A stretch of 64,000 nucleotides of DNA from an uncultured Bacilli bacterium (GTDB lineage Bacteria; Bacillota_I; Bacilli_A; RF39; UBA660). Below the pieces are notes generated by a model. The model was not told where the DNA came from, did not search any database, and saw only the letters and a list, made by a program, of their open reading frames with translations. Positions 363 through 18,586 of the stretch are shown piece by piece (the stretch's first letter is position 1; every line of letters begins with the position of its first letter). Location of the stretch: contig CANQQR010000002.1 in assembly GCA_947626035.1 (NCBI GenBank), positions 37,175 to 101,174 on the forward strand. The letters run 5' to 3'. The translations under genes were made by a program, and so were the position numbers.

Positions 363-1355
363 TTAGATTTTATAATACATTTGTTTACTGCTATTTGGTT
401 TATTTGGTATGGTTTGTTTAATTAGGCCTTCTTTAATAGCGGGATGTAGATATTTGTTTCTTAATGTGTTTTTAGATTTTATATTTAGTTTTTCCATTAT
501 TTCTTTAGCGCTTAGTGGTACATTTTTTTCTAAGCAATTTAGTAATTTATTTATGTTTATTGCATCTTCAACAATTAATGTATTTGGTATTTTTAATGCT
601 TCGTCTAGTGTTTCGTCTATTATTTTTAGCATAAATTCAATAAATTCAGTGGAATTACCTAAGTTATTACAGTCATTAATTGCTTCGTAGTACCCTTTTT
701 GATATTTATATATTTGTGATTCAATTGGTAGATATTCAAATATTTTTTTCCAGTTATAAAGTAAAATGTTTTGCCATAGTCTTACGGTTCTTCCGTTTCC
801 ATCGCTAAATGGATGAATAAATACAAATTCATAGTGAAATACACTTGATAATATTAATGGATGTATTTTATTTTTATTTTCTTTTGCCCATTTTAGAAGT
901 TGTTTTATTAGATAGTCAACATTTTCAGGTGGTGGACACATAAATATGCAGTTTTTACCGTTAAATACGCCCTCGTTTCCTTTTCTGAATTTACCAGAGT
1001 CTTTTACTGTTAAATATGTTATTATACCATGGGCTTTTTTTAAGTCTTTAATACTATATGGGTTAAGATTATTTATCATTTCATAAGCATTGTAGGCGTT
1101 TTTTACTTCTTGAATGTCTTTTTTAGGGCCTAGTACTAATTTACCATCTATAACATCTTTTACTTGGTCTTTTGTTAGTTTGTTGTTTTCGATTGCAAGT
1201 GAAGAATGAATAGAATTTATTTTTGTTTGTTTTCTTAAATATGGTTTTTTATTTAGATTTGTATAGTTATCAAGTTTAGTTATTTTTTCAGAAATATTAG
1301 CTACTCTGTTTAATATGAGTTCTGTTATTTCATATGGTGGATTATATTTTTCCAT
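363..1355 (-). CDS. Fic/DOC family protein (AMPylator-type), class II with internal inhibitory motif, C-terminal wHTH-like region
   Basis: Canonical Fic motif HPFSDGNGRTVR (HPFx[D/E]GNGRxxR). An upstream SLAIEN segment matches the [S/T]xxxE[G/N] auto-inhibitory helix motif. 330 aa. Confidence 0.85.
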   Translation of the reverse strand: MEKYNPPYEITELILNRVANISEKITKLDNYTNLNKKPYLRKQTKINSIHSSLAIENNKLTKDQVKDVIDGKLVLGPKKDIQEVKNAYNAYEMINNLNPYSIKDLKKAHGIITYLTVKDSGKFRKGNEGVFNGKNCIFMCPPPENVDYLIKQLLKWAKENKNKIHPLILSSVFHYEFVFIHPFSDGNGRTVRLWQNILLYNWKKIFEYLPIESQIYKYQKGYYEAINDCNNLGNSTEFIEFMLKIIDETLDEALKIPNTLIVEDAININKLLNCLEKNVPLSAKEIMEKLNIKSKNTLRNKYLHPAIKEGLIKQTIPNKPNSSKQMYYKI

Positions 1356-2683: not shown

Positions 2684-3832
2684 TTAATGGTAAATTTTAT
2701 CTTGAATTATAACGTATATAATAGCTCCGATAAAATATGCAATAAATATAAAATAAATTACATTCATTACTTTTTCTCCTATACTTAATTTTCTTTTTTT
2801 AGGTTTTACTTTTTTCTTTTTTGTAAATTTACTTGAGTCTACATTTTCATAAAAATTAATTGCAAAACCCATTTCAGAAAGTAAAAGCGGAAAAGTTGCA
2901 TTTTTATATATCGGTGTCATTATTAAACCTGAAAAGTATAGTATTGTACTTATAATGTGTGCTACTATATAATCTTTACTTATTTTTAGTTTGATAATTT
3001 GGTCTGGATTAGATGGGTTTGATTTTTCTTCTGTTGTATTTTTTAAAATTGTGTAGTTTTTAGGGTTAAGTTTCATTATATAGATAAAGCTATCTCTCAT
3101 ATATTTATATGCAGATTTAAACATTGAATCGTTTTGTTTATGTACATAAAGTGATTTAGTATTTAATTCTATTCCTGTTGGTAAGATAGTTAACCTTTCT
3201 TCAATTAAGCAATTTGTGAATAGATACTCTTTAAATCTTTCAGTACTTTTATCTACTATGATTATTATTTTAAGTGATATGTATATTGAATTTAATGTTT
3301 CTATTAAGTCATGTAAGTCATTATCTATTTCTTCTTCTGTTTTATCTTTAAATTCTTTCATTCTTATTATTGCATAAAATTCTATGTTGCTTATACCTAA
3401 ATTTTTTTCATAGATGTTTAGCTCTTTTTCGTTATCATATTTCTTCTCTAATGTTAATTTGTATTTTTGTTCTGTTAATTTAGCAACAATATCATTATAA
3501 ACAGTTGAATAATTACTACTATTTATTTTAAATTTGTATGCGTCTGCTTTTTTAGTTTTAAATATATCTGATTCTGATTTAACATTTAAAGTGCTTAAAG
3601 TAACATGAATATATATAGCAGTTATGCCTAATATTAAATCGCCAATAAGCAAATAATCATAAATCTTTTCATAAATTTCAGTTGGTATTATAAGTGGAAA
3701 GACTAATAAAATTGCAAATAACATAATTCCACTGAATATTATTAGACTAACTATAAATATTATAATTTTGTTGAAAGTTTTTTCTTTCATGATTACCTCT
3801 TTCTTTAATATATTTTTATTCTTCAAACTCAT
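2684..3832 (-). CDS. Hypothetical membrane protein, paralog B of the tandem pair
   Basis: 382 aa. It shares long identical blocks with paralog A (e.g. PTEIYEKIYDYLLIGDLILGIT, SESDIFKTKKADAYKFKINSSNYSTVYNDIV, NCLIE..., SLYVHKQNDS, YKYMRDSFIYIMKLNPK), but the central and C-terminal parts diverge. Confidence 0.6.
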   Translation of the reverse strand: MSLKNKNILKKEVIMKEKTFNKIIIFIVSLIIFSGIMLFAILLVFPLIIPTEIYEKIYDYLLIGDLILGITAIYIHVTLSTLNVKSESDIFKTKKADAYKFKINSSNYSTVYNDIVAKLTEQKYKLTLEKKYDNEKELNIYEKNLGISNIEFYAIIRMKEFKDKTEEEIDNDLHDLIETLNSIYISLKIIIIVDKSTERFKEYLFTNCLIEERLTILPTGIELNTKSLYVHKQNDSMFKSAYKYMRDSFIYIMKLNPKNYTILKNTTEEKSNPSNPDQIIKLKISKDYIVAHIISTILYFSGLIMTPIYKNATFPLLLSEMGFAINFYENVDSSKFTKKKKVKPKKRKLSIGEKVMNVIYFIFIAYFIGAIIYVIIQDKIYH

Positions 3833-4850
3833 ATTTATCTAGTCTTTTTTTAATTTTATCTAGTTCTTTTTTTCTTTCGTCATAGTATTTTGTTGTTTCC
3901 CAATATTTTAAATCTCCCTCTATAGCTTTATAGCCTAGGCTTTTAAGATTTGGTGTTAATTTTTTAACTCTTAATAATTTGTCTACTAGTACTAGGTAAA
4001 GTATAATTCCATCCGTTACGTTTGCATATTCGCGAACATCATCAGTTAATTTATTTAATATTTGTCTTCCAGTTTTATTTTTATCATATATTTCGTTGCA
4101 AACACTTTTTACATATAGTGCTATATCATTATCATATAATTTTGGACCCCAACCATATGAGTAATGTCTACCCTCTTTTTGTCTTTTTAATACTATCTTA
4201 TCTCCTCTTTCTCTTTTATAGAGTTTATTCATAATTCTTTCGTTAAATTTTTCAGTTTCTTTTATTCCTCTTTTTGTGTATTGTTTTCCTTTTTTTAGAT
4301 TAAATGTTTCATAGCTTTCTAATAATTCATTTACAAATTTGTCTGAATTAATTGTGCTTATAAATAAGCTTTCTTTAATAAATTCTTCCTCTTCTGGAAT
4401 TTCTATTTTAAAGTTACCTATATATTTAAATTCAGGACAGTAGAATTTTTTTGGTAAAATAAATATTCTGAAAATATAAGTGTATATAAGTCCATATTTA
4501 TCAGGTTTAACTTTTATATGCTTTTTACTTTCTATTAATTCTTCTACAGATTGTTCCATCGGCTTATCTCCAAGTCTTAAATTATATGGACCTCCATAAT
4601 ATTTTATTAGTTCCAGTTTGTCAAATTCTTCTTGGGTAGTAGGGATTGTCTCGTCTTTTGTTATTTTTGCACGAAAATATTGAAATTCTGGGTATTTTGG
4701 GTCAGTTTTAATGTTTTCATTTTCAAATTTAGTGAGTAATAAATATCTTCCATTATATTTTTTAAATTCTTTATTATCGGTTTCAATTTTAACTGCGAAT
4801 GTATCGCCTGGTAGCCAATTTTTTTTAAATTTTTTATTTCCTTTTATCAT
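3816..4850 (-). CDS. Orphan paralog of the RHS-toxin immunity protein (putative immunity protein)
   Basis: 344 aa. It is strongly similar to the ORF at 6765..7811, which sits immediately downstream of the RHS toxin. The N-terminal ~90 aa and C-terminal ~60 aa are near-identical, and the 5' ~160 nt of DNA is ~95% identical. It has its own extended -10 promoter TGATATAAT (minus strand, 4882..4890) downstream of a terminator. Confidence 0.6.
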   Translation of the reverse strand: MIKGNKKFKKNWLPGDTFAVKIETDNKEFKKYNGRYLLLTKFENENIKTDPKYPEFQYFRAKITKDETIPTTQEEFDKLELIKYYGGPYNLRLGDKPMEQSVEELIESKKHIKVKPDKYGLIYTYIFRIFILPKKFYCPEFKYIGNFKIEIPEEEEFIKESLFISTINSDKFVNELLESYETFNLKKGKQYTKRGIKETEKFNERIMNKLYKRERGDKIVLKRQKEGRHYSYGWGPKLYDNDIALYVKSVCNEIYDKNKTGRQILNKLTDDVREYANVTDGIILYLVLVDKLLRVKKLTPNLKSLGYKAIEGDLKYWETTKYYDERKKELDKIKKRLDKYEFEE

Positions 4851-4907: not shown

Positions 4908-4943
4908 TGAAAAAAAGGTTAGCACTTTTTTTAAGTGCTAACC
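4908..4943 (-). terminator. Intrinsic terminator (9-bp stem ggttagcac/gtgctaacc, U7 tract) ending the RHS operon; overlaps the stop codon of the ArpU-like gene
   Basis: Perfect inverted repeat at 4917-4925 and 4935-4943, followed on the minus strand by UUUUUUU (reverse complement of aaaaaaa at 4909-4916). Confidence 0.7.
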
Positions 4944-5537
4944 AATTATTATGTTAAGATTTTCATTACTTTTTAATTCTAAGTATGTTTTTACTAGACA
5001 ACTCTTTTTAATCTTTTGTAAAGTAAATCTACTTATATTCAATATTTCACTTATTTCTTCTTCAGTTTTATTATTAAAGAATGTGTTTACTAAATAATAT
5101 GTTTCACTGTATGTTAATTTAGTAGATAGGCTCATTATAGTATCATAAAAATCTTTAGCCCATATTTGTTTATCTATTTTACTTGCTATGTAATTGCTTA
5201 TTTTGTCTTGTTTGTTTTTATTTTTAGTTATTTCTTTACCATATATTGGCGATATGTTTATGTAGTCTTTATCAATATATTTGGCGTCATTAAAAGTAGT
5301 GAAACTTTTTAATAAATCTTTTCTTAGATTTGTGTAGTAGTATGCTTCTATTACTTCATTGCTTAAAAGATTTCTGTAAGTTTCTTTCTTATTTTCTAAG
5401 TTTTCTAAAATTTGTTTTGGTAATTCAAAAAAATTATTATCGTTTCTCATATTATCTACTTCGACTTTCCCCCTCACATTTAATTTTTTTCTGTTTATAT
5501 TAGTCTTTTTTTGTTTAAATGTCAAGATTTTTTTCAC
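4938..5537 (-). CDS. ArpU-family / sigma-70 region-4-like phage late transcriptional regulator
   Basis: 199 aa. The C-terminus (TEEEISEILNISRFTLQKIKKS) looks like a region-4 helix-turn-helix. The overall size and layout fit ArpU-type phage late regulators. It overlaps the holin gene by 23 nt. Confidence 0.5.
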   Translation of the reverse strand: MKKILTFKQKKTNINRKKLNVRGKVEVDNMRNDNNFFELPKQILENLENKKETYRNLLSNEVIEAYYYTNLRKDLLKSFTTFNDAKYIDKDYINISPIYGKEITKNKNKQDKISNYIASKIDKQIWAKDFYDTIMSLSTKLTYSETYYLVNTFFNNKTEEEISEILNISRFTLQKIKKSCLVKTYLELKSNENLNIIIG

Positions 5538-5925
5538 TTCCTTTTAAATTATTAAATATATCGAATAGTTTTTTGGGTAATGGTAGGTTCATTAAGGCCC
5601 AGTTTTCAAGTATAGATATGGCTTCATTAGATATAAAAAAGTATAAAACTATAGTCCTTATAGCGCCACTGCTTTTTAATATTATTTTATCTAATAATGA
5701 TACTAATATAATTATTAATATATAGCCTATTTTTTTGATTATTCCTTTTATTCCTATGTTGCTATTTAATTCTTTTATGTATATTGCTTTACATATACCT
5801 GTTATGTAATCAATAATCATAAATATTAATAATATTTTAAGAAGAGAGTCTAAGCCTCCTAACAAGTATGTTATGAGGCTTAGTATACTATTACATATTA
5901 TTTCTAATTTTTTCAAAATTTTCAC
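5515..5925 (-). CDS. Holin, TcdE / Phage_holin_4_1 family
   Basis: 136 aa with three predicted transmembrane segments. The central block GGLDSLLKILLIFMIIDYITGICKAIYIKELNSNIGIKGIIKKIGYILIIILVSLLDKII and the C-terminal ISILENWALMNLPLPKKL closely resemble the C. difficile TcdE holin (..D.LLG..SAIK...FNSSFGIDGGIRKV...VD.. and SILKNM.L.GLPVPKRL), recalled from memory. Its start overlaps the stop of the M23 gene (ATGA). Confidence 0.75.
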   Translation of the reverse strand: MKILKKLEIICNSILSLITYLLGGLDSLLKILLIFMIIDYITGICKAIYIKELNSNIGIKGIIKKIGYILIIILVSLLDKIILKSSGAIRTIVLYFFISNEAISILENWALMNLPLPKKLFDIFNNLKGSEKNLDI

Positions 5926-6740
5926 CTCTTTATATATAATTGTTGACCTGGGTATATTAACCCTGGGTCTGGTCCTATTGTGTCTTTGTTATCTTCATAG
6001 ATTTTAGGCCAAGTCGTGTTATATTTGTTTGCAATATCATATAATGTATCTCCTGATTTTACTGTGTATGTTATGATGTTTGAATTGTTAGTTTGATTAG
6101 GAATACGTATTGTTTGACCCGTGATTATTAGATTAGGATTTTCTATGTTATTGTATTTTGCTAAATCTATATAATTCATATTATATAAAGAAGCAATACC
6201 ACTTAAGGTATCGCCACTTTTAACTATATATGTGATATCAGTATTATTACTTATGGCATTATTTGTTTCTAAATATTCTGGAATTGTTTTTATTCCTAGT
6301 AAATAATCTTTAGGGTCAACCCATGCATTGTTTACTTCTACACCAAAATGTAGATGTGGGCCAGTTGCATAGCCAGTAGCTCCTTTTATTCCGAGTAGTT
6401 GTCCTTTTTTTACTATATCGCCTACTTTAACTTTGATACTGTTATATTGCATGTGATAATAAACTGTATATATGTTATTTCCGTGATATAGAATAACATG
6501 GTTACCACTACCATAGGTAGTGGTATAACCTGTTATATTATCTCTTATGTCTGTAACTATTCCACTTGATACTGCTACTATTTCTGTACCGCTTGTCATG
6601 TCTATTCCGTTGTGGAAGTTACTATCATATTTATTAGTTACTTCATTATAGAATGTTCTATAACCGAAGTCTGAAGTTATATAAGAAAAATCCAATCCTT
6701 TGAAAGGACTGGATTTAATATTATTTAATGTATAACCCAT
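5922..6740 (-). CDS. Peptidoglycan hydrolase: M23 (LytM-type) metallopeptidase domain followed by two LysM domains
   Basis: 272 aa. It has the HxxxD motif (HNGIDM) and the HxH motif (GPHLHFGV) of M23 peptidases. Two C-terminal LysM repeats are present (YIVKSGDTLSGIASLY... and YTVKSGDTLYDIANKY...). No signal peptide is evident. An AGGAGG ribosome-binding site sits 8 nt upstream. Confidence 0.85.
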   Translation of the reverse strand: MGYTLNNIKSSPFKGLDFSYITSDFGYRTFYNEVTNKYDSNFHNGIDMTSGTEIVAVSSGIVTDIRDNITGYTTTYGSGNHVILYHGNNIYTVYYHMQYNSIKVKVGDIVKKGQLLGIKGATGYATGPHLHFGVEVNNAWVDPKDYLLGIKTIPEYLETNNAISNNTDITYIVKSGDTLSGIASLYNMNYIDLAKYNNIENPNLIITGQTIRIPNQTNNSNIITYTVKSGDTLYDIANKYNTTWPKIYEDNKDTIGPDPGLIYPGQQLYIKR

Positions 6741-6764: not shown

Positions 6765-7811
6765 TTATTCTTTGAACTCATATTTATCAAGTCTTTTTTT
6801 GATTTTGTCTAGTTCTTTTTTTCTTTCGTCATAGTGTTTTGTTTTCTCCCAGAATTTTAAATCGTCTTCTATGGCTTTATAACCTATTTTTTTTAGTCCA
6901 GGTGTTAATTTTTTTACTCTCATTAATTTGTCTACTAATACTAGATAAAATCTGGGTCCATCTGTTTTGTTTATATATTCATGAGCTTCTTCATATAGTT
7001 CTCTAAATATTTGCTTTCCAGTTTTGTTTTTATCGTATATATCGTTGTAAACATTTTCTACATTTATTGATACATCACTATCATATAGTTTTGGACCCCA
7101 TCCGTATGAGTAATGAAATTCTACTTTACCTTCTTTTATCATTTTTAATATTAGCTTATCTTCTCTGTCTTTTTTATAGTAGTTTTTCATAATTCTTTCA
7201 TTGTTTTCTTCTGTTTCTTTAATTCCCTCTTTTGTATATTCTTTACCTTTTTTAAGATTAAATGTTTCATAACTTTCTAATAATTTGTTTATAAATATGT
7301 CTGAATTAAGTAGGCTTATAAATGAGCTACTTTCTTTAATAAATTCTTCTTCTTCTGAAATTTCTATTTTAAAGTTGTTTATGTATTTAAATTCTGGACA
7401 GTAGAATGTTTTTGGCGAAATAAATATTCCAAAAATATAAGTGTATATAAGTCCATATTTATCAGGTTTGACTTTTAAATGCTTTTTACTTTCTATTAAT
7501 TCTTCTACGGATTGTTCCATATGCTTATAGCCATATCTTACATTATTTGGACTTCCATAAAATTTTATTAATTCTTGTTTGTCAAATTCTTCTTGAGTAG
7601 TAGGAATAGTCTCGTCTTTTGTTATTTTTGCCCGAAAATATTGAGATTGTGGGTATTTTGGGTCAGTTTTGATGTTTTCATTTTCAAATTTAGTAAGTAT
7701 TAGATATCTTCCATTATATTTTTCAAATTCTTTATTTTCGGTTTCAATTTTAACTGCGAATGTATCGCCTGGTAGCCAATTTTTTTTAAATTTTTTATTT
7801 CCTTTTGTCAT
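6765..7811 (-). CDS. Putative immunity protein cognate to the RHS toxin C-terminal domain
   Basis: 348 aa. Its start overlaps the RHS stop (7808..7811). This is the usual position for an RHS immunity gene. It is a paralog of 3816..4850. Confidence 0.65.
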   Translation of the reverse strand: MTKGNKKFKKNWLPGDTFAVKIETENKEFEKYNGRYLILTKFENENIKTDPKYPQSQYFRAKITKDETIPTTQEEFDKQELIKFYGSPNNVRYGYKHMEQSVEELIESKKHLKVKPDKYGLIYTYIFGIFISPKTFYCPEFKYINNFKIEISEEEEFIKESSSFISLLNSDIFINKLLESYETFNLKKGKEYTKEGIKETEENNERIMKNYYKKDREDKLILKMIKEGKVEFHYSYGWGPKLYDSDVSINVENVYNDIYDKNKTGKQIFRELYEEAHEYINKTDGPRFYLVLVDKLMRVKKLTPGLKKIGYKAIEDDLKFWEKTKHYDERKKELDKIKKRLDKYEFKE

Positions 7812-10800
7812 TCATTGCACCTTTCTAAATATTTGCTTACATCATAATAGTTTTGGCCAGTTGTAAACTTATCCATTAATATATCATAATCTGGCCTGTT
7901 TGGATTTAAACCGTGAATTTGGTTTTTTGTTTTATTCTTTCTAGTGACATCAAGAGTACAATATTCTATCATGTACCATTCTTCTCTAGTACGAGCTTGT
8001 TCATAAGTTAAATTTTCTTCAACGGGAACAAGATTAAGGTGAGCTCTGTAAGGATTATTTCTATGTCTATTTTTAGTAGCTATTTTGTTATTTGTTCTTC
8101 CAACATAATATTTTCCACATAGTTTACTATTTTTTTCCCATTGGTCTTCAGTACAATCAGTTAAAACATATACTAAATTATTTGTTTCTTCTTTCTTGTC
8201 TTTTTTCTTTTTCTTTTTCTTACTACTATTATTATTAAAATCTGGTATATCAATTGAATATGCTATGCTATCGTTATTTAAGTGAGATAATGCTACTAGT
8301 GCACAAGCTATTGTTGCTACAACTTTTATTGCGTTTTCAATAGCTTGCTCCGTAGCGATTGCTTCCATAATAAATTCACCAGTTATATCTTTATGATTAA
8401 TAGGGTTATTTGTACAGTATGTGAAGATATTATATGTTGTTACTACTTCTTCGTGACCGAAGAATTTATCAGCATTAATAAATCTTCCCCATTCTGGATT
8501 ATAGTATCTAGAATTTAAATAATATAATTTAGTTTCTTCGTCATAGTAATAACTTCTGTATCTAAATGGGTTAATAATTGCAATGTTATTTTTGTCAGTT
8601 ATTTCGTTATTTAAATTATCTTTTATTGATAGTATGTTACCATATGGGTCATATGTATAAGTAGCTATTAATTCATAGTTGCTGTTATATATTCCTATGA
8701 TGTCATTTTGTGAGTTTTTCTTATAGTAGTATGTTTCTCTACTGTTGTATTTAAATCCAATTAAATCTTCATTGCTGTTGTATATATAGTTTAGCATAAT
8801 GTTAGGCTTTTCTTCAAGTATAATTAAGTTATTTTCTAATTTGTAGTTAGTTATTATACCATCTACTTCTTTTGAAGTTCTTATTCCACTTAGGTCATAT
8901 GTGTATTTATAGTCGTTGTATGAAGATAGTTTTTTACCTTTTTCCCAAGTTAGAGTGTCATTTCCTATTGTTAATGGGTTACCTATAGTATCGTATGTTA
9001 TTTCTTTGTCATTGTATTTTGTTAGTAAATCTTCCCAATTTGAGTCATTATATTCAAATGTATCTGTTTTTAATAGTAAATTATTTAGGTTGTATGTTTT
9101 CTTTTCTGTGATGTTACCTTCTTTGTCATATACGTATTTGTATAGCAAATTATTTTGATAATCTTTTGCAGTTATTAATTCGTTAATGGTATCATATTCA
9201 TATTCATTTGCTATTTCTTCGTTTATGTATATTCTTGTAACATTATATAAATCGTCGTAGTGATATTTGTATGTATCATTATCTATTGTTATTTTGTTAA
9301 TGACTAGAGAAGTTTTGTTACCGTTAGACATATATTCGTAATCTATTTTTAAATTGTTGTTTATGTTTGTATTAGTTAGTCTGCCTAGGTTATCGTAAGT
9401 ATAATTTATTTCGTTTTCGTCTATTATTACTTTTACTAGGTTGTCGTCTTTGTCATATTCATATGTTATATTTTGGAATTCAATGTTATCTTTACTGTAT
9501 TTTTTATTTTGTATGTTGTTGTTTATATCATATGTGTATTTTATGTCAAAGTTGTTGCTTATGTATTTTTGTAGTCTTCTAGCAACGTCATAGTTATATA
9601 TGTGTGTTTCTTTATCATTTATTATTTTTGCTACATTACCAAAATTATCATATAGGAAATTATAGATGTTGTCATTTTTTGTTAATGTACTTATTCTGTT
9701 TAAAGAATCGTATGTATAAGATTCTTTAAATCCGTTACCATATGTTTTACTTTTTAAGTTACCATTGTTTTCTTCATATTCATATGATATTAATGTGTTA
9801 TTATTTATTTTTATTTCTTTAGTGTTTAGGAATTCGTCATATTCTATTTTGTAGTTTTTAGTTCCACTTTTTATGTTAGTTAAGCTGTCTAGGTCGTATG
9901 TGTATTCTATTGATTTGTTGTTATTTGTTACTTTTATTAGTTCTTCTCTATCATTATATTCTAGATATGTTGTGTCTCCTTTAGCATTTGTTATAGAATT
10001 TGTTAATCCGTTTTTTGTATTTATATCATATTTTGTTTCTTTACCTAAAGTGTCAACTACACTTGTTATGAATTTTCCATCTTCTGTATAGAATGATTTG
10101 CTTTCTATATATTCTTTTAATTCAGGGTCTTCTATGTAAAATTGATTATTATATAATTTTACATCTTTATCAGTAATAGTTAGTATTCCATTTTGATTTG
10201 ATAGATTTTTAAATACATCACTTTTTGTTATGAATGAATAACTACCATTTTCATTAGGATTTAGTATGTATAAAGAATAGTCGCTATTTTTTGTTAAAGT
10301 TATGTTGTTGTTATTTTCTTTTATAGCTTTACTACCTATTTTTAATTTATAGTATGTTTCATTGTCTATTTCTTCTTTTTCTAATTTAAATGCTGCTTTG
10401 TTACAATCTCCTGGTGCAAATTTGAATATATTTTCTTTTGGGTCGAAGTATAGATATTCATTTGTTCCTTTGCTTCTTATATTGTAGTTATGATTTTCTA
10501 TAATTTCATTATCTTTTAGTGTGTTTTTAATTATGGTATTAGTTGGGTTACCAAATGAGTCATATTTTATTTGATTAGTTATTCCTGTATCAGTTATTCC
10601 ACTTAAAATTCTGTTTGGTACTTTGTTATCATATTCGTATTTGAAACTATTTCCTTTAGGATTAAATTCGCTTATTAGTTGGTTTTTATCGTCATAGTTA
10701 AATTCACTTGAGTTGTTGTTTAGTCCTGTTGTTTTTATTACATTACCATTTTTGTCATATTCAAATATGTATGTTCTAGGGTCTTTTATTACCATTATGT

Positions 10801-13800
10801 CAGTTATGTATAGTGAGTTACATTCATTTAATGATAGTATTGTAAGATTTGCTGATTCAAAGTCTGCATTTGCTACAAATGTTGCATTAAAGTAAGTCCA
10901 TTCTTCACTACTTTGTTTTAGTCCTGTAAGAGGTGCACATGTTCCAAGTTCCCCATTTACGTGGTATAAGTTCATAAGTACGCTGTTGCCTTGTGATTCG
11001 TGAACATCTTTATATGGTGTAATTCCCTCGTTTTTGTACCAAAATGATACTCTAAATGTTTCTCCTTTTTTGCCAAATAGGTGGAAGTTATAACTTGCTG
11101 TAAATTGTTCTTCAGGATGGCTGTTAATTTTTAATGCTTTTTCTTCTTCATTTATGTTTACTACTTCATAAGTACAATAATTACTATTATTGAATGTCCA
11201 ACCTGTTGTTCTGTTAGTGAAGTCTGAATTTTCTACTAGATTTCTTTCATTTGCTACTTGACCAGTTTCTAATTGCATTTCGTCAATGAAGAAGAATGAT
11301 GCTGGAACTGCATCAAAAACGATTTTTAATTTTGAGTTAGCATGGAAGTAGCCAGTAAATGTGTATTTATCAAACTCTGTTATTTGTCCAAGATTTGGAA
11401 CTGTTCTTATGTAATATTTATCTACTTCTGTTTCTACGTCGTCAAGCACTTCTATTAATCTTATATCTACATAACCGTCATAAGGAAGGTCTGGTCTTAT
11501 GTTAAGAGATAATGTGTAATAATTACTTTCTGTTATGTTATATGTAATATAAGCTTTTCTTGCTATGTGTAGACAATAGTTTTCGTCATTTGGGTATTTG
11601 CTTTGTCGACCATATGTTCCAAATATATCGAAGTTACATTCTTCAAGTGGTCTTTCAAAGTCGCTATTTATAAGAAGATTGTTTGTGTATTTAATGAATG
11701 GTGCATTTTTAGTTGGTTTATTTTTTAAATTTGTATTTTCACTTGTAACATATTCATTATAATAATCTGTTGATTCATAATATGCTTCTTTTATTTTATT
11801 TGTATTTTTAGTGTATATTGTTTTTCCAGTACTATTACCATTAGCATTAAAGGTATAAACTGATTTAATTCCTAAATTGTTTATGATAGTTGTATTTGTG
11901 TCGTTGTAAGTAAATGATAATGACATTCCATCATTATTATTGATGCTTTTTTCAGTTACTTTTTTAATTTTATAAGGAGATGCATCATAATATTCAAAAT
12001 CAAAAGATAAGTTATCAATGTCTGTTATTTTTGTTATTATATTGTTTTCGTTATAAGTAGATTTAGTTATACCATCTAATACTTTGATACTTGTTAATTT
12101 ATTGTTATCTATTGTGATAGTTGATGTTTCATAGTTACTAGTAATGGTTATATTGTTAGTACTATATGTTATATTTATTTCTTCATTGTTTCCGTCTGTG
12201 ATTTTTGATATTAGGCCATTTTCATATGCAATATTTATTTCGCTGTTTTCTGTATTTACAATTTTTGTTAAACGGTATTTATCATTTATGTTTGTATATA
12301 CTTTTTTGTTTCCTATTTTATCTGTTAGAGTATATTCATTGTTTTCATAAACAATGTCCATATTCATACCATCTTCGTCATGGTATTTGTTTTCTTCTTT
12401 TTTGTAAAAGTAATAACTTGCTCCAGTATCACTAGTTAATCTTAAATACTCTAATGTATCTAGTTGTTCTTTTTCTATGGTTTCTTCTAAACTAAATTTC
12501 CAACCTTTGCATATTCCTGATTCAGTGTTCATGATTACATTTTGCGTATTATAAATAACATTTAAAGTTACTGGGAATTTTCCACTAATTGTTTGGTTAA
12601 CATAAAATAAAGATGTTAGGTTTCCTGTTTTATTGTTTACATAACAATCTCCATTACTTAGTGCTACATTCGCATAATCAATATAGTCAAGTAGACCATT
12701 TTGATCTCTATATGTAATTGTTAAGTATGGTCTTCTTGGGGTTTCTTCTACTTCTAAATAGTCATGATATTTTGAATAACATTCATATTCGTTGAAGTTT
12801 TCGTCTATTGTTTCTGTTACCCATTTTAGCATTATTCCATTGTTTTTTGAACCTGCATACCATTTTTTTACAATTGATGTTATATCAAAGGTAGTTGTAT
12901 TTGCTAATACTTGTGTTCTTGATGGGTAAAAATATGTTTCATATTTTTTATTATAGTTTTCACTCATGTTGTTCCAAGTAGCAGTTGTTTCATCCCATTC
13001 AGTTGTTATTTCATGTACTGCGATTTTTCTATCTATTCCGTATAGTGGTCTATTTGGAAATGAGTATAGATTTACTTGTGCATTAACGATGTCAAAACTT
13101 GTACCAATTGTAGGTAGTATGAATTTTAGTAGTGCTCGGTAAATTACATTTTCTTTTGAACAACCGATTATAAGTTTATAATTTCGGTCGAAGTTATTAT
13201 TTGGTTCTGCATTTGATATAAATGTGTCATATACATTTTCGCCGTTTTTAGTAATTGTTGGGTCTATAGTTACTGGGTATATTATTTGTTCTTCCATTAG
13301 CCAGTTTGTATCTAGGTTTAATGTTAAAAGATATGTGTTATTTGGTTCTTTTTCTAAAGTATAGAATATGTTTTTATTTATTTTGTTTTGTTTATCTATC
13401 ATAAATGGTGCTTCTATTGTGAATATTATTTCATTATTATTTGTTGCTTCTATAGTTTTATTTTCTTTTAATGATAGATTTAAATCAGTTTCAATTATAA
13501 ATTCTAATTTTTCTTTTATATCGTTTTTGTTATGTAGTATAATGTTTTCTTTTAATTTTGAAGATATTACTTTATAATTTATATCTATGTTTTTAAATAC
13601 ATCTTTATATGTTATATTTTCTTTATCTTTAATTAAGTTTAAGTTGTTATTGTTTTTGATGTATGTTTTTATGAAGTGATTATCATTAGTAAGTGTTACT
13701 AATTCATTATTATTTTTATTGAATTTTGTTTTAAAACTATTATATTTGTTTTCAAAATATTCGCCTTTATCTACTAATGTGTTATCTATTTCTCTATAAA

Positions 13801-13912
13801 CACCATTATTTAAATAGTGGATGTCATTGTTATATATTTGTGCTGTTATTGTTCCATCTTCATTTAAATAATGTTTTACTTTTCTTTCTCTTAATGTTTT
13901 TAATTCTTTCAT
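7808..13912 (-). CDS. RHS / YD-repeat polymorphic toxin (2034 aa) with a variable C-terminal toxin domain (possibly GIY-YIG/URI-like nuclease)
   Basis: Dozens of YD repeats (YDxxGN..., YTYDxxxRL..., YEYDxxNxL). The RHS-core end motif is present (PFRYRSYYYDEETKLYYLNSRYYNPEWGRFINADKF). A K-rich linker (SSKKKKKKKDKKEE) precedes a ~150-aa C-terminal domain with GIY-YIG-like spacing (VYVLTD...KYYVGRT...NRHRN...E...E..YMIEY...N). No N-terminal signal peptide, transmembrane segment or LXG motif is seen. Confidence 0.9.
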   Translation of the reverse strand: MKELKTLRERKVKHYLNEDGTITAQIYNNDIHYLNNGVYREIDNTLVDKGEYFENKYNSFKTKFNKNNNELVTLTNDNHFIKTYIKNNNNLNLIKDKENITYKDVFKNIDINYKVISSKLKENIILHNKNDIKEKLEFIIETDLNLSLKENKTIEATNNNEIIFTIEAPFMIDKQNKINKNIFYTLEKEPNNTYLLTLNLDTNWLMEEQIIYPVTIDPTITKNGENVYDTFISNAEPNNNFDRNYKLIIGCSKENVIYRALLKFILPTIGTSFDIVNAQVNLYSFPNRPLYGIDRKIAVHEITTEWDETTATWNNMSENYNKKYETYFYPSRTQVLANTTTFDITSIVKKWYAGSKNNGIMLKWVTETIDENFNEYECYSKYHDYLEVEETPRRPYLTITYRDQNGLLDYIDYANVALSNGDCYVNNKTGNLTSLFYVNQTISGKFPVTLNVIYNTQNVIMNTESGICKGWKFSLEETIEKEQLDTLEYLRLTSDTGASYYFYKKEENKYHDEDGMNMDIVYENNEYTLTDKIGNKKVYTNINDKYRLTKIVNTENSEINIAYENGLISKITDGNNEEINITYSTNNITITSNYETSTITIDNNKLTSIKVLDGITKSTYNENNIITKITDIDNLSFDFEYYDASPYKIKKVTEKSINNNDGMSLSFTYNDTNTTIINNLGIKSVYTFNANGNSTGKTIYTKNTNKIKEAYYESTDYYNEYVTSENTNLKNKPTKNAPFIKYTNNLLINSDFERPLEECNFDIFGTYGRQSKYPNDENYCLHIARKAYITYNITESNYYTLSLNIRPDLPYDGYVDIRLIEVLDDVETEVDKYYIRTVPNLGQITEFDKYTFTGYFHANSKLKIVFDAVPASFFFIDEMQLETGQVANERNLVENSDFTNRTTGWTFNNSNYCTYEVVNINEEEKALKINSHPEEQFTASYNFHLFGKKGETFRVSFWYKNEGITPYKDVHESQGNSVLMNLYHVNGELGTCAPLTGLKQSSEEWTYFNATFVANADFESANLTILSLNECNSLYITDIMVIKDPRTYIFEYDKNGNVIKTTGLNNNSSEFNYDDKNQLISEFNPKGNSFKYEYDNKVPNRILSGITDTGITNQIKYDSFGNPTNTIIKNTLKDNEIIENHNYNIRSKGTNEYLYFDPKENIFKFAPGDCNKAAFKLEKEEIDNETYYKLKIGSKAIKENNNNITLTKNSDYSLYILNPNENGSYSFITKSDVFKNLSNQNGILTITDKDVKLYNNQFYIEDPELKEYIESKSFYTEDGKFITSVVDTLGKETKYDINTKNGLTNSITNAKGDTTYLEYNDREELIKVTNNNKSIEYTYDLDSLTNIKSGTKNYKIEYDEFLNTKEIKINNNTLISYEYEENNGNLKSKTYGNGFKESYTYDSLNRISTLTKNDNIYNFLYDNFGNVAKIINDKETHIYNYDVARRLQKYISNNFDIKYTYDINNNIQNKKYSKDNIEFQNITYEYDKDDNLVKVIIDENEINYTYDNLGRLTNTNINNNLKIDYEYMSNGNKTSLVINKITIDNDTYKYHYDDLYNVTRIYINEEIANEYEYDTINELITAKDYQNNLLYKYVYDKEGNITEKKTYNLNNLLLKTDTFEYNDSNWEDLLTKYNDKEITYDTIGNPLTIGNDTLTWEKGKKLSSYNDYKYTYDLSGIRTSKEVDGIITNYKLENNLIILEEKPNIMLNYIYNSNEDLIGFKYNSRETYYYKKNSQNDIIGIYNSNYELIATYTYDPYGNILSIKDNLNNEITDKNNIAIINPFRYRSYYYDEETKLYYLNSRYYNPEWGRFINADKFFGHEEVVTTYNIFTYCTNNPINHKDITGEFIMEAIATEQAIENAIKVVATIACALVALSHLNNDSIAYSIDIPDFNNNSSKKKKKKKDKKEETNNLVYVLTDCTEDQWEKNSKLCGKYYVGRTNNKIATKNRHRNNPYRAHLNLVPVEENLTYEQARTREEWYMIEYCTLDVTRKNKTKNQIHGLNPNRPDYDILMDKFTTGQNYYDVSKYLERCNE

Positions 13913-13927: not shown

Positions 13928-14554
13928 TTATGCTGTTCTTTTCCAAATGTATACGGCTAGGTATGGTGGCATATTGTTGTGTTCTTTATTACCACCTGTT
14001 TTACCTGTTCCTACATTTTCGCCTGTATAATTGTATCTAGTTCCACTAAAGAATTTACCAGCTGAGGTTCCGTTTCCTTTTCCTCCAAGTAGTGTGTATG
14101 GTACCGGATTTCCTGTATCGTCGATTATTTCGTCGTGTAAATGTGATGGCATTTCGTCAATAGTTAGTTTATGATTTTTTTCTCCACCTGTTTTTTCTAA
14201 TTCATTAAAGTCGGTATCGTCTTCGTCGATTCCAACTAAGGTTCTACCTTTAGCAAATCTTTCCCATGTTCCACCAAATAAGGTACTAGGGTTAATATTA
14301 TTTGCAGTAAAATAAATAGAGCCTACTGGGTATATTGCATCAAAGTCAGTATTTCCAGTAGAACTCTCGCTTGTTGTTAGTACACTATTACAGGTAATGT
14401 TACCCATCGAGTCAATTCTAAAGTTACCTGTTGTACTACTTAAACATTTTGCTTTTAATTCATTAAATTCAGCATTTATTCCATCGCCAGTTTCAGTAAA
14501 ACAATCTTTAAAATAAATGTCGTCTAGTGTTAATATTTCTTTATTTTCTTCCAT
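13928..14554 (-). CDS. Phage tail-collar domain protein (MdpB-like), paralog 2
   Basis: 208 aa. IYPVGSIYFTANNINPSTLFGGTWERFAKGRTLVG...EKTGGEKNHKLTIDEMPSHLH matches the phage tail collar (Collar) domain pattern P.G.I....GW...DG........L.GR...G....G.E.H.LT..EMP.H.H. The N-terminal 62 aa are identical to the upstream paralog. It is followed 15 nt later by the RHS start. Confidence 0.75.
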   Translation of the reverse strand: MEENKEILTLDDIYFKDCFTETGDGINAEFNELKAKCLSSTTGNFRIDSMGNITCNSVLTTSESSTGNTDFDAIYPVGSIYFTANNINPSTLFGGTWERFAKGRTLVGIDEDDTDFNELEKTGGEKNHKLTIDEMPSHLHDEIIDDTGNPVPYTLLGGKGNGTSAGKFFSGTRYNYTGENVGTGKTGGNKEHNNMPPYLAVYIWKRTA

Positions 14555-14572
14555 TGTTTTTTTTCCTTTCGT

Positions 14573-15157
14573 TTATGCTGTTCTTTTCCACATGTAACAA
14601 GTGATGTATGGTTGTAAGTTACCTGAGTCTCCTGTTCCTGAGTTATCAACATAGCCGTGATATGTATTTGATGCGCTTTCTGGCATAACGTCATATTTTA
14701 ATCTCATTACACCATCAACCCATTCAGCTTCGCCATCAGGACTTCTATAAAAGTGGTGGTTGTGTTTTTGTAAGTATTTACTTCCGCCTGTTTTTTCTAC
14801 TTCATTAAATTCTGTTTGGTTTTTGTCTACCCCTACTAAGGTTCTTCCTATTGCGAATGATTCCCATGTTCCACCAAAGTAAGTGCTAGGGTTAATATCA
14901 TTTATTGATATATAAATAGAACCTACTGGGTATATTGTGTCAAAGGTAATACCTGTGCCTGTAGGATTATCACTTGTTGTTAGTACACTATTACAAGTAA
15001 TGTTACCCATTGAGTCAATTCTAAAGTTACCTGTTGTACTGCTTAAACATTTTGCTTTTAGTTCATTAAATTCGGCATTTATTCCATCGCCTGTTTCAGT
15101 AAAACAGTCTTTAAAATAAATGTCGTCTAGTGTTAATATTTCTTTATTTTCTGCCAT
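14573..15157 (-). CDS. Phage tail-collar domain protein (MdpB-like), paralog 1; first gene of the operon
   Basis: 194 aa. It has the same collar-domain signature (IYPVGSIYISINDINPSTYFGGTWESFAIGRTLVG...EKTGGSKY). An AAAGGAGG ribosome-binding site is present. The downstream intergenic segment with its ribosome-binding site (tcctttcgtttatgctgttcttttcc) is duplicated after both paralogs. Confidence 0.75.
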   Translation of the reverse strand: MAENKEILTLDDIYFKDCFTETGDGINAEFNELKAKCLSSTTGNFRIDSMGNITCNSVLTTSDNPTGTGITFDTIYPVGSIYISINDINPSTYFGGTWESFAIGRTLVGVDKNQTEFNEVEKTGGSKYLQKHNHHFYRSPDGEAEWVDGVMRLKYDVMPESASNTYHGYVDNSGTGDSGNLQPYITCYMWKRTA

Positions 15158-15221
15158 TTTTGTTCCTCCTTTTTTTGAAAATAAATTTTTGTTTTGTTTT
15201 AAGTTTTCATGTGTTCCACCT

Positions 15222-15269
15222 CCAAAATAAAAAATGAATTAATCTCTTCTTTCGATAATTAATTCATTT
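15222..15269 (-). terminator. Intrinsic terminator (11-12-bp perfect stem aatgaattaat/attaattcatt, 14-nt loop) downstream of the oxidoreductase-like gene
   Basis: Inverted repeat at 15233-15243 and 15258-15268. It is followed on the minus strand by UUUUAUUUUGG. Confidence 0.6.
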
Positions 15270-15316
15270 TACTACATTATAAATCATGTATTTTTAAAGT
15301 AAATATTATTTTTGTT

Positions 15317-17026
15317 TTAGTTTTGTATTAATTTGTTTAGTAAAGTTATTACTTTTATATTTTTTAAGTTTATGATTAGAGATAATACTTTAAAATATAA
15401 TGTTATTAATAATTTGTTAGATTTGCTTTTATATAGTAAAGGTGTTACTATTTCTTTAGTTTTGTTATCTTTTATGTATAGATATGTTTCATATAAATCA
15501 TTTTTGTCTATGTGATTTAGTATTATTCCATATTCCATGTTTAGTTTATTTGTTTCATATACGTCTAGTAGTGTTCTTTCTTCATTTTTATTTATTTTTG
15601 TTATGTACATTTTTAGATATTCTATATATTTGTTTTTATTTGCTATTTCTATGTTTATGTCTTTATGTTTTACTGTGCTTAACATGCAGCTTGTTAGGAT
15701 GTTTATGTTTTCTTCTTCTCCATCTAGTGTTCTTATTTTTGTGTCTTTTAGAAATTCTTTTATCATTTTTTCTCTTGATAATTCATTGTAGCCTTGCATG
15801 TTTTGTTTTTCTTTTTCAGTATATAAGCTACCTAATGTTATTCTTTCAAATGGTTTACCTCCGATTATGTCTGTGTTTCTATAGATGTCTATATCAAAGT
15901 GTTCTAGTCCTCCTGTTGTTTCTTCGTTATCAGTTCTGTCTTTTATTTCTTTTGATTGATAACTATGTATTTGTATGTTTAGAAGTGTTCCTACTTCTAT
16001 GTTTATTCTTTCGTGTCTTACTCTACCGTTTTTTTTGTAAAATTCACGAGTTTTAATCCATCCTCTTCTAGAAAAACCATAGTGAAGTAAGTTTAGTGTG
16101 GCGGTTGTTATTGTTTTGTTATTATTATTTTTAAATGTTAGTAAGCCATAAAAATTTTTTTCTCCCATTTTTTTAAAGGATTTGTGTTTTGTTTTATAGT
16201 AATCTGGTATTTCTTGGTCTTTAAATATGTTTTCTATATCTTTGTATGTACATATTGCAAGTTCGTCTTCTGGTGTGAATGTTTCTGATTTTACGTAACC
16301 TTTTGTTATTTTTTTATTTTTATCTTTTATTAAGTCATTTATTTTTAAGAAGTCACTTAGTAAGTCAATAAAGTGGTAGCCACTGTGGAATAGTTTACCA
16401 TATTGATATTTGTATGGATGGTTTTCTTTTAGCATGTCGTGAGGTAATTCCCAAGCTCCATCACAGTGGAATATATCTATATAAGTTATAGGTATTTGGT
16501 ATTTTTCTACTACTTCTTTTAATATTTTTTTTACGTATATGTACCCGCGATGGTATCTTCTTTGACATAGTACTGTGCAACTGGTGTTACTTTGATTTTC
16601 TAATTTTAGTAAGTTTTGATATTCTTTTTTTACTTTTTTTATCTTTTTTATGTTGTGCATTTTTTTGTTTACTGTTAGTGGTTTATCAGTTAGTACTTTT
16701 ATTTTGTTTTTTAAAGCAAATTCTATGTACATGTTGTGTGCTTTTGGTTCTGTTGATATTATTATGTGTGTTATGTTTTCTTTTTCACATATGAAAGATA
16801 AGTTATTGTAGTCATATTTTTTTAAGTGAAGATTATCTTTGTATTTGTCTTTGATTAAGTATATTTTAGTGTTTTTGAATCCCTCCTCTTTTAAAAAGTT
16901 TTCTATTTCTTCTTTTTTAGAATATAAATCAATTATTAATTTTAGATTGATTTTGTATTTTTTTATGTAATTAATATATATTCTTTTTGCATGTGGTCCT
17001 AGACCGATTAATGCAATATTTGTCAT
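15317..17026 (-). CDS. Large protein with N-terminal Gfo/Idh/MocA-type NAD(P)-binding oxidoreductase domain; C-terminal ~350 aa of unknown function
   Basis: MTNIALIGLGPHAKRIYINY... Rossmann motif (GxGxxA/G) typical of Gfo/Idh/MocA. 569 aa. Its ribosome-binding site (aaggagat) is embedded in the 3' arm of the upstream terminator hairpin. Confidence 0.55.
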   Translation of the reverse strand: MTNIALIGLGPHAKRIYINYIKKYKINLKLIIDLYSKKEEIENFLKEEGFKNTKIYLIKDKYKDNLHLKKYDYNNLSFICEKENITHIIISTEPKAHNMYIEFALKNKIKVLTDKPLTVNKKMHNIKKIKKVKKEYQNLLKLENQSNTSCTVLCQRRYHRGYIYVKKILKEVVEKYQIPITYIDIFHCDGAWELPHDMLKENHPYKYQYGKLFHSGYHFIDLLSDFLKINDLIKDKNKKITKGYVKSETFTPEDELAICTYKDIENIFKDQEIPDYYKTKHKSFKKMGEKNFYGLLTFKNNNNKTITTATLNLLHYGFSRRGWIKTREFYKKNGRVRHERINIEVGTLLNIQIHSYQSKEIKDRTDNEETTGGLEHFDIDIYRNTDIIGGKPFERITLGSLYTEKEKQNMQGYNELSREKMIKEFLKDTKIRTLDGEEENINILTSCMLSTVKHKDINIEIANKNKYIEYLKMYITKINKNEERTLLDVYETNKLNMEYGIILNHIDKNDLYETYLYIKDNKTKEIVTPLLYKSKSNKLLITLYFKVLSLIINLKNIKVITLLNKLIQN

Positions 17027-18136: not shown

Positions 18137-18586
18137 ATGATAGATTATACAGATTTTAATACTTTTTTTGGACCTAAGTTAAGTGTTAGGTATGGAGAGG
18201 TTAATGCTATTGCTACTTCTAGTGAGCCAAGTGATGATACTTGTTTTGCTAGGGTTACTCAGTCATTTGCTTTTGTTAGTCCTGATGCTTATTTTACTAC
18301 TTCTAATGTTGTTACTTTTAATTATTATGTTGGTAAGGAAAGAAGTATTGCGGATTTAGTTCAAGAGTATTCTGATTATAGAGATAAGCTTACATCTTTA
18401 GTTAGTATTGCTTCTAGTGGACAAAAGACATGTGCTGAGGTTAATATGGGAGGCACTGTTAGATTTTATTCTATTGGAGATAATGATAGAGTTTTTGATA
18501 GTTTAGAAGATATGCTTGAAGCTATTAATGATGTTAAGGTAAGTTGGAACGCAATGTTAGGTAAAAAATATGTAATTAAAAAATAG
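18137..18586 (+). CDS. Hypothetical protein (149 aa) divergently transcribed from the LysR regulator
   Basis: Clean ORF with a GGAGG ribosome-binding site (ttggaggtttagattATG). Its composition is richer in A/S/T/V/D than its neighbours. No recognisable motif. A bidirectional terminator lies at 18577..18610. Confidence 0.5.
   Translation: MIDYTDFNTFFGPKLSVRYGEVNAIATSSEPSDDTCFARVTQSFAFVSPDAYFTTSNVVTFNYYVGKERSIADLVQEYSDYRDKLTSLVSIASSGQKTCAEVNMGGTVRFYSIGDNDRVFDSLEDMLEAINDVKVSWNAMLGKKYVIKK

Follow-up and report, generated by a model that had tools for sequence, protein, structure and literature searches.

Two adjacent genes, here called GpA and GpB, on the minus strand of a 64,000-nucleotide (nt) stretch of an uncultured Bacilli genome (contig CANQQR010000002.1; hereafter the window, at its full length) very probably encode dedicated accessory proteins of an RHS toxin that are of phage tip origin. 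They lie head-to-tail on the same strand, directly 5' of a gene for a 2034-amino acid (aa) RHS protein, and both combine an N-terminal module of about 60 residues (hereafter the N-module) with a Gp10_C domain, a tip domain of phage tail fibres and baseplates. We lean towards a mechanism in which they would be phage-derived receptor-binding tips, with the N-module docking onto the RHS toxin and a variable segment setting the target range. A first-pass annotation of the window had placed the two same-strand open reading frames (ORFs) correctly, and the receptor-binding or targeting role that it proposed is still the best-supported candidate mechanism. The positions of all features are collected in Table 1.

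The assignment to Gp10_C (PF21939) was obtained for both proteins with scores of 98.4 bits for GpA (E 9e-28, residues 72-193) and 118.7 bits for GpB (E 5e-34), the gathering score of the model being 27 bits, and both matches extended over model positions 2-139 of 139. When 116 family members were combined into a profile, it matched the structures of the T4 gp10 C-domain (2fkk, 2fl8, and 5hx2) with E-values of 1e-15 to 3e-15. The PHROG matches of the tip proteins were to tail, baseplate, and tail-fibre families, including phrog_910, "tail collar fiber protein", at 4e-7. The AlphaFold2 model of GpB (predicted local distance difference test score, pLDDT, 75) matched phage baseplate, gp10_C, and tail fiber proteins in BFVD, down to 2e-11, with "tail collar" proteins among the weak structural matches. 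Foldseek comparison of this monomer model with the PDB gave weak matches (best 2fkk, E 0.15), as expected for a single chain of an intertwined trimer, and the domain call therefore rests on sequence profiles and BFVD. The first-pass annotation had read a collar-domain signature in these proteins. They do share a small size and a phage fibre-derived domain with phage tail collar proteins (PF07484; MdpB-like), but neither was matched by the Collar model even at E <= 5; the family is Gp10_C, and what holds of the earlier label is, in spirit, its phage fibre character. A motif of the GG-x-LT-x-MP-x-H-x-H type is one that, by eye, we take to be reminiscent of tail collar proteins; membership of PF07484 is unsupported.

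Comparative genomics was decisive for the link between the N-module and the RHS toxin. A hidden Markov model (HMM) of the N-module was scanned against three independent samples: (a) 80 loci on one-genome-per-species contigs, retrieved by alignment of the whole family; (b) 79 metagenome loci, not fully independent, retrieved with the N-terminal 420 residues of the RHS protein and without use of the tip proteins; and (c) 80 IMG/VR viral contigs carrying a Gp10_C domain. In the first sample the N-module was present at 23 loci, and at 22 of these an RHS ORF of about 2000 aa followed downstream on the same strand; the exception lies at a contig edge. The RHS-proximal tip copy ended between -22 and +410 nt from the RHS start. 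An adjacent RHS gene was found at none of the 57 Gp10_C loci of this sample without the N-module (Fisher 8e-19), which held mostly fibre-like ORFs of 150-960 aa, several of them next to a holin. In the metagenome sample, an ORF with both N-module and Gp10_C domain lay just upstream of 48 of the 52 RHS genes that encode no signal peptide and have at least 700 nt of upstream sequence, and two such ORFs were present in three groups of loci. By contrast, a tip gene was found upstream of none of the 15 signal-peptide-bearing RHS relatives in this sample. The viral contigs contained neither the N-module (0/80) nor an RHS gene (0/80). The signal-peptide-bearing relatives (loci L139-L151, L165, and L167) show 28% identity in the N-terminal 420 aa, have the same architecture, and start with a Sec signal peptide, MGVFKKLLSAVSVTLTATIAFTFPVQAVAAN. 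In the window, inspection and a heuristic revealed no signal peptide on GpA, GpB, or the RHS protein.

GpA and GpB are 58% identical overall (BLASTP). Their first 62 residues, at first taken to be identical, agree at 61 positions and differ at position 2, which is A in GpA (MAENKE) and E in GpB (MEENKE); this identity is far above chance. The corresponding 186 nt are about 95% identical, and eight of the nine differences are synonymous. For the N-module of the pair, the synonymous and non-synonymous substitution rates (dS and dN) were 0.26 and 0.007 (dN/dS about 0.03), and for the first, conserved half of the C-terminal domain they were 0.54 and 0.16. A repeat search returned a direct repeat (D1) of 215 nt and 92% identity spanning both N-module copies; around GpA and GpB it detected neither inverted repeats nor invertase-type switching. 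The duplication of the downstream intergenic sequence with its ribosome-binding site was confirmed, since the last codons and ribosome-binding site TGGAAAAGAACAGCATAAACGAAAGGA occur after both genes. Beyond the N-module, GpA and GpB can be aligned to about residue 125, are then unalignable, and converge again over the final 12-22 residues (..PY..Y.WKRTA). The C-terminal divergence noted in the first pass is thus real, but it occupies an internal segment and not the last ~90 aa. GpB carries the near-invariant family motifs H-LT--EMP-H-H and GG---HNNMPPY, whereas in GpA seven residues of the H-LT--EMP motif before HxH are deleted, and SGN replaces HNN (about residues 126-135 and 176-180). Despite these lost motifs, the ribosome-binding site of GpA, AAAGGAGG, is strong, and stronger than that of GpB, and its N-module is under strong purifying selection. 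The G+C content of the window is 28%. Four metagenome contigs with GpA keep the upstream gene order of the window, and two of the four also carry GpB or a 99%-identical variant.

These data make it extremely improbable that GpA and GpB are decaying prophage tail-fibre genes that lie beside an RHS island with no functional link to it, an alternative raised in the first-pass annotation. The domain is indeed abundant in phages, the holin of the locus belongs to a phage family, the order of tip and then holin is also seen in the phage contig L169 (see below), and GpA has lost conserved motifs. However, decay does not account for the co-occurrence with RHS across species (22/23 and 48/52), for an N-module that is absent from the 80 viral contigs and has such a low dN/dS, or for intact ORFs with ribosome-binding sites and a spacing of 15-18 nt. 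Nor are there other phage structural genes: tape-measure, Dit/Tal, tube, capsid, and terminase genes are absent next to GpA and GpB in the window, where PHROG matches were confined to GpA, GpB, the hydrolase, and the holin. The unit is flanked by an oxidoreductase-like gene, LysR, SMC, and RNase III. The chromosomal, housekeeping neighbours of the tip-RHS pair vary by species (rpoBC; lepA/hemN; LysR/oxidoreductase in the window), so that the pair moves or persists as a unit. The tip genes are therefore neither absent from other RHS loci nor always embedded in prophage tail modules, and the functional idea survives. As first proposed, they lead the RHS operon, to which their tight spacing, the lack of phage structural genes, and an N-module nearly always beside RHS assign them. 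The earlier association with RHS-holin loci holds for the RHS part and is looser for the holin.

A search of about 5.8 billion proteins yielded 3105 relatives of the tip proteins, and in the best of them the alignment runs over the full length and takes in the N-terminal 60 residues. At species level, the best relatives are about 50% identical and come from "uncultured Bacilli" metagenome-assembled genomes (MAGs). The hosts of the family are uncultured gut "Bacilli" MAGs with labels including Bacilli bacterium, Mycoplasma sp., Tenericutes, Clostridium sp. CAG:1000, and Candidatus Faecimonas. Two forms were distinguished, a short one of about 185-215 aa, to which GpA and GpB conform, and a long one of about 335-400 aa, in which some 160 aa are added at the N-terminus; this added region had no match in Pfam or the PDB, and no trace of it was found in the window. 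At three loci (L014:9601-10032, L017:9654-9998, and L008:337-570) the extension is encoded on its own, in a small ORF that abuts a short-form gene, and split genes or frameshifts may be the reason.

The anticipated variability of the C-terminus across relatives was evident in column statistics from 116 sequences (GpB residue numbering). Values were low in the N-module (residues 9-62, 1.4 bits), the core (71-140, 1.4 bits), and the C-terminal strand region (187-208, 1.0 bit), and between these conserved blocks lies a hypervariable segment (141-186) with an entropy of 3.4 bits and a length of 30-76 aa among the homologues. The AlphaFold confidence of GpB is lowest in this segment (pLDDT 46-55).

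The behaviour of the N-module as an exchangeable part is illustrated by the viral contig L169, which encodes a 193-aa protein whose tip is 42% identical to GpB over residues 13-208, with the same motifs and the ending ..HNNLQPYITVYMWKRTA. Its first ~60 residues match phage tail-fibre N-termini (phrog_18023) and not the N-module. The gene follows a tape-measure gene and a tail-protein gene, with an unassigned 328-aa ORF between those two, and immediately precedes a phrog_199 holin of the same family as the window holin. The same tip is thus phage-mounted through one N-terminal segment and RHS-associated with another. In its layout, the window resembles the distal part of a siphophage late operon (tip, holin, lysin), with the RHS toxin and immunity genes lying in between.

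Several different tips occur in one genome both in the window and at L003, and at loci with two or three tip genes the N-modules are 71-98% identical, versus 42-66% for the tip domains. At L004 a second tip gene (L004:9724-10335) is not in tandem; it lies downstream of the RHS and immunity genes, immediately before an M23 hydrolase and a holin, and its N-module is 97% identical to that of the upstream copy, so that long direct repeats flank the toxin gene. In Mantel tests on 46 dereplicated loci, the N-module correlated with the RHS N-terminal region at r 0.72, and this region with the RHS core at 0.79; the values were 0.52 for the tip against the RHS N-terminal region and 0.39 for the N-module against its own tip. 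This pattern would fit a constant adaptor with partly exchangeable heads, and we regard it as supportive only.

The co-divergence of the N-module with the RHS N-terminal region could also be claimed for an export, stability, or assembly adaptor comparable to the Eag/VgrG-type accessories of type VI secretion systems. Such an adaptor would attach to the N-terminus of RHS to help it fold, to protect it, or to pass it to the release route, without recognizing a target. A position immediately upstream of RHS also resembles that of effector-associated accessory genes (e.g., PMC4524185). On the other hand, a chaperone needs neither a phage tip fold with a hypervariable insertion of 30-76 aa nor paralogues that differ only there, and no secretion machine is encoded nearby; we consider this reading quite unlikely. 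Slightly less probable still is that GpA and GpB are independent lectin- or bacteriocin-like factors, co-regulated with the toxin and released by the same lysis, that act alone (by agglutination or receptor blocking) without attachment to RHS. They are small stand-alone proteins with their own ribosome-binding sites, and the RHS protein has a CBM96-like module of its own, but independence offers no explanation for a specific N-module that is conserved, is homogenised among the copies of a locus, diverges in step with the RHS N-terminal region, and never occurs away from RHS in the samples scanned.

In the mechanism that we favour, the N-module would be the adaptor through which the tip protein, presumably trimeric, docks onto the signal-peptide-less RHS toxin or a complex containing it; in phages, another N-terminal segment docks the same tip domain to the baseplate. 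The hypervariable segment of the Gp10_C tip would bind a cell-surface receptor, and two paralogues with a common adaptor and different tips would provide two receptor specificities for one toxin. At the window locus, the complex would be made in the cytoplasm and released by the holin and the M23/LysM hydrolase of the operon, possibly under the sigma-like factor, by a route resembling the exit of phage particles, tailocins, Tc toxins, and clostridial large toxins. More tentatively, the whole may constitute a tail-less "fibre-guided RHS" bacteriocin, in which a cytoplasmic RHS cocoon would carry trimeric tips through the 60-residue adaptor, leave the cell by holin and hydrolase, and have its tip cassettes swapped or multiplied to aim at competitors.

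Several observations weigh against this mechanism. The RHS toxin already has its own CBM96-like glycan-binding module in the N-terminal region, so that the need for a separate receptor binder is not obvious. All 15 signal-peptide-bearing loci belong to one clade of close relatives, and their contrast with the remaining loci amounts to about one independent observation. Co-divergence and synteny follow equally from plain co-inheritance in one operon. The residues that are missing or changed in GpA are at least 90% conserved in the family, and GpA may be degenerate or functionally different. Of the related loci with enough downstream sequence, about 17 in number, only about 5 have a holin/M23 pair within about 3.5 kb 3' of RHS, and lysis-type release is therefore not shown to be general. 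Finally, the hypervariability could mirror the wall polymers of the producer and not those of targets.

This last point leads to the alternative of an anchor on the surface of the producer, which we consider unlikely, if less so than the other alternatives. Here the tips would bind the producer's wall polymers and hold the released RHS protein for contact-dependent inhibition, replacing the in-cis wall-binding repeats of Sec-exported WapA-type RHS proteins. The RHS proteins of this clade lack a signal peptide, and searches of them detected neither a wall-anchor nor a LysM domain; the wall-binding N-terminal part of Streptococcus suis WapA contains LysM and DNRLRE (PMC12704120). Furthermore, the strict coupling and the N-module evidence fit an anchor as well as they fit targeting. 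Two or three different tips per genome (the window; L003) are, however, more easily understood through several target receptors, and the phage homologues of the domain bind the surface of the cell under attack; neither argument is decisive.

The RHS protein consists of an all-beta N-terminal region with a CBM96/DNRLRE module, the RHS cocoon, and a variable C-terminal toxin. Matches were obtained to NF033679 (DNRLRE, residues 228-400), PF05593 (1e-16), TIGR01643, and TIGR03696 (Rhs_assc_core, residues 1754-1845, 64 bits, cut-off 32.5). The AlphaFold2 model of residues 1-420 (pLDDT 88) is all-beta; its second half resembles the chondroitin-sulfate- and alginate-binding CBM96-type modules 8wab and 7vbo (template modelling score about 0.67 on the target), and no specific match was obtained for the beta-sandwich region that forms its first half. 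The C-terminal toxin had no family match. While the RHS core aligns across all related loci, the C-terminal 184 aa of the window protein are matched at few loci only. Full-length homologues of the 348-aa protein encoded downstream directly follow RHS at L013, L014, and L017, all three of which score on the C-terminal toxin segment of the window; L025 also scores on this segment and has a partial homologue. Orphan RHS-end fragments lie downstream at L005, L012, and L049, the classic pattern of polymorphic toxins. The RHS/YD repeats and core, together with a variable C-terminus and a co-varying downstream gene, are those of an RHS polymorphic toxin-immunity system, in which the 348-aa protein behaves as a candidate cognate immunity protein. 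In two metagenome contigs of the same species with about 3x coverage, the RHS gene was called in two or more fragments (L001:1546-7144, 733+1064 aa; L002:2348-4760, 82+640 aa), which could reflect assembly or sequencing error or a real disruption.

GpA and GpB open a unit of seven genes, followed by the RHS toxin, the immunity candidate, the M23/LysM hydrolase, the holin, and a sigma-like factor, with successive gaps of 18, 15, -4, 24, -4, and -23 nt. The only sizeable intergenic gap ahead of it (15158-15316) holds a promoter-like site. Holin and hydrolase are adjacent within the toxin operon, the M23+LysM gene overlapping the holin start by 4 nt, and the unit is closed by one strong intrinsic terminator. 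None of the seven genes was matched by the PADLOC defence models. Homologues of the sigma-like protein occur after the holin at L004, L013, and L014, and a role as dedicated regulator of the unit is possible. Beyond the terminator, a 344-aa copy of the immunity candidate is probably an orphan or extra immunity gene.

Table 1. Features of the tip-RHS unit and its surroundings in the window
Feature	Position	Strand	Remarks
Promoter-like site TTTACT-16-TATAAT	15276-15303	(-)	Consensus scan 10/12; equally frequent in shuffles, weak alone
GpA	14573-15157	(-)	194 aa; N-module (residues 1-62) and Gp10_C domain; atypical family member
N-module coding repeat, copy 1 (GpA residues 1-62)	14972-15157	(-)	61/62 aa identical to copy 2
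Hypervariable segment of GpA, ~residues 135-178	14624-14755	(-)	Unalignable to GpB; corresponds to the family-wide variable segment
GpB	13928-14554	(-)	208 aa; N-module and canonical Gp10_C domain, HxH and GGxxxHNNMPPY motifs
N-module coding repeat, copy 2 (GpB residues 1-62)	14369-14554	(-)	N-module HMM matches RHS-linked proteins only
Hypervariable segment of GpB, residues 141-186	13997-14134	(-)	From column entropy; low pLDDT (46-55)
RHS polymorphic toxin	7808-13912	(-)	2034 aa, without signal peptide; 15 nt after GpB
Candidate cognate immunity protein	6765-7811	(-)	348 aa; 4-nt overlap with RHS stop; no family match
Peptidoglycan hydrolase, M23 peptidase and two LysM	5922-6740	(-)	PF01551 3.6e-23, PF01476 3.2e-28; PHROG endolysin families
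Holin, toxin-secretion/phage-lysis type	5515-5925	(-)	PF05105 1.2e-37; TIGR01593 holin_tox_secr 97.8 bits (cut-off 40.2); phrog_199
Sigma-70-family-like protein	4938-5537	(-)	199 aa; weak region-4/ECF similarity: TIGR02937 7.5e-6, below cut-off; Sigma70_r4 0.012
Intrinsic terminator closing the unit	4917-4943	(-)	11-bp stem, 5 GC pairs, then TTTTTTT
Second immunity-candidate copy	3816-4850	(-)	344 aa; after the terminator; BLASTP 75% identity over 348 aa

Some further genes of the window deserve description. Just upstream of GpA, a 569-aa gene (15317-17026, minus strand) encodes a GFO/IDH/MocA-type Rossmann N-terminus, and over its last ~100 aa it is similar to the C-terminal part of the ~160-aa ORFs found directly upstream of tip genes at L003:9307-9792 and L004:1121-1615. 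Together with the LysR gene it is kept upstream of the tip-RHS pair at L011 and L042 (55% and 50-53% identity), and it may be a conserved neighbour or a regulator of the system. After the second immunity-like gene follow two paralogous genes (2684-3832 and 1484-2620, both on the minus strand) of 382 and 378 aa, 71% identical and with no family match, which may also belong to the island as orphan immunity or accessory genes. At the far end of the island (363-1355, minus strand) lies the gene for a Fic/DOC family protein whose C-terminal winged-helix domain is Fic-like. Between LysR and SMC, a 149-aa ORF (18137-18586, plus strand) had no family match and occupies the same position in a contig of the same species (L089).

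How Gram-positive RHS or WapA-type toxins reach and recognise their targets is an open question: passage through the cell wall was called unresolved for S. suis WapA (PMC12704120), as was the delivery mechanism in a study of bacterial teneurins (PMC13018210). Here, a signal-peptide-less RHS clade of uncultured gut Bacilli is tied almost one-to-one to phage tip proteins via a dedicated adaptor. Our full-text literature search returned no paper in which Gp10_C, tail-collar, or tail-fibre-like proteins are connected with RHS toxins of Gram-positive bacteria, and in the polymorphic-toxin survey of Zhang et al. 2012 "tail-fiber" appears solely as a type of repeat in the toxin polypeptides themselves (PMC3482391). 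Each part belongs to a known kind, and it is the combination, i.e., small Gp10_C tips joined to a signal-peptide-less Gram-positive RHS protein via a private adaptor module, that appears not to have been described. If the tips do bind RHS and set the target range, they would represent a new accessory class for polymorphic toxins, the N-module would be a simple genomic marker for finding such systems, and the constant adaptor with its exchangeable tip would offer a modular scaffold for retargeting protein toxins. Direct genetics is hard as the hosts are uncultured; heterologous reconstitution is feasible.

Among known systems, the Gp10_C tips of phages, including the T4 gp10 C-domain, are clear homologues through the C-terminal domain and the shared ..PY..VY.W.RIA end, and a phage homologue of the same size exists (L169, 193 aa). 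They differ in that the proteins described here are chromosomal, measure 190-210 aa (about 350 aa at other loci), have no tail, baseplate, or capsid genes nearby, carry an N-module that is not in the viral contigs examined, and have an RHS toxin as their invariable neighbour. The locus also illustrates how the distal part of a siphophage late operon, with tip, holin, and lysin, is domesticated piece by piece.

The Tc (ABC) toxin complexes of Yersinia entomophaga are released by a type 10 secretion lysis cassette of holin, endolysin, and spanin (PMC10847048). Like the window locus, Tc toxins have a large signal-peptide-less RHS cocoon, a separate receptor-binding component, and a phage-type lysis cassette. 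However, neither the RHS protein nor its neighbours had a Pfam or NCBIfam match to a TcA-like translocator or to the SpvB/beta-propeller N-terminal region of TcB; the window thus has no detected pentameric TcA-like translocator, and its candidate receptor binder is a phage fibre tip. In addition, the host of the window is of Gram-positive type, an M23/LysM hydrolase takes the place of endolysin and spanin, and the immunity gene and orphan modules indicate interbacterial use.

The pathogenicity locus (PaLoc) of Clostridioides difficile comprises the sigma factor TcdR, the holin TcdE, and the endolysin remnant TcdL (PMC12485765, PMC12150058). It resembles the window in its TIGR01593-family holin, an adjacent wall hydrolase gene, and a sigma-like gene in one unit with a large signal-peptide-less toxin. 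Unlike the window, with its RHS toxin and immunity gene, it has a glucosylating toxin and lacks fibre-tip proteins, and the sigma match in the window is below the cut-off.

WapA-type RHS proteins (Bacillus subtilis; S. suis) share the RHS cocoon, the polymorphic C-terminal toxin, and the downstream immunity gene, and S. suis WapA also has DNRLRE/CBM96 N-terminally. S. suis WapA follows a Sec/sortase route and has no tip partner (PMC12704120). WapA-type proteins differ in having a Sec signal peptide and wall-binding repeats and in lacking a fibre-tip partner, a contrast mirrored in our data, in which 0 of 15 signal-peptide-bearing relatives have the partner, against 48 of 52 in the signal-peptide-less clade.

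In tailocins, i.e., pyocins of the R and F types as well as diffocins, reused phage receptor-binding proteins aim a bacterial killing device that leaves the cell by way of a phage lysis cassette, and the tips are exchangeable on a constant adaptor. Unlike the window, which has none of these genes, tailocins encode sheath, tube, and baseplate, and they kill with a membrane-puncturing tail, where the killing moiety of the window locus would be an enzyme toxin encapsulated by RHS. A fibre-guided RHS bacteriocin, if real, would show in concrete terms how RHS toxins of Gram-positive bacteria select their targets and would be, besides tailocins and Tc toxins, a third way of rebuilding phage parts into a targeted killing particle.

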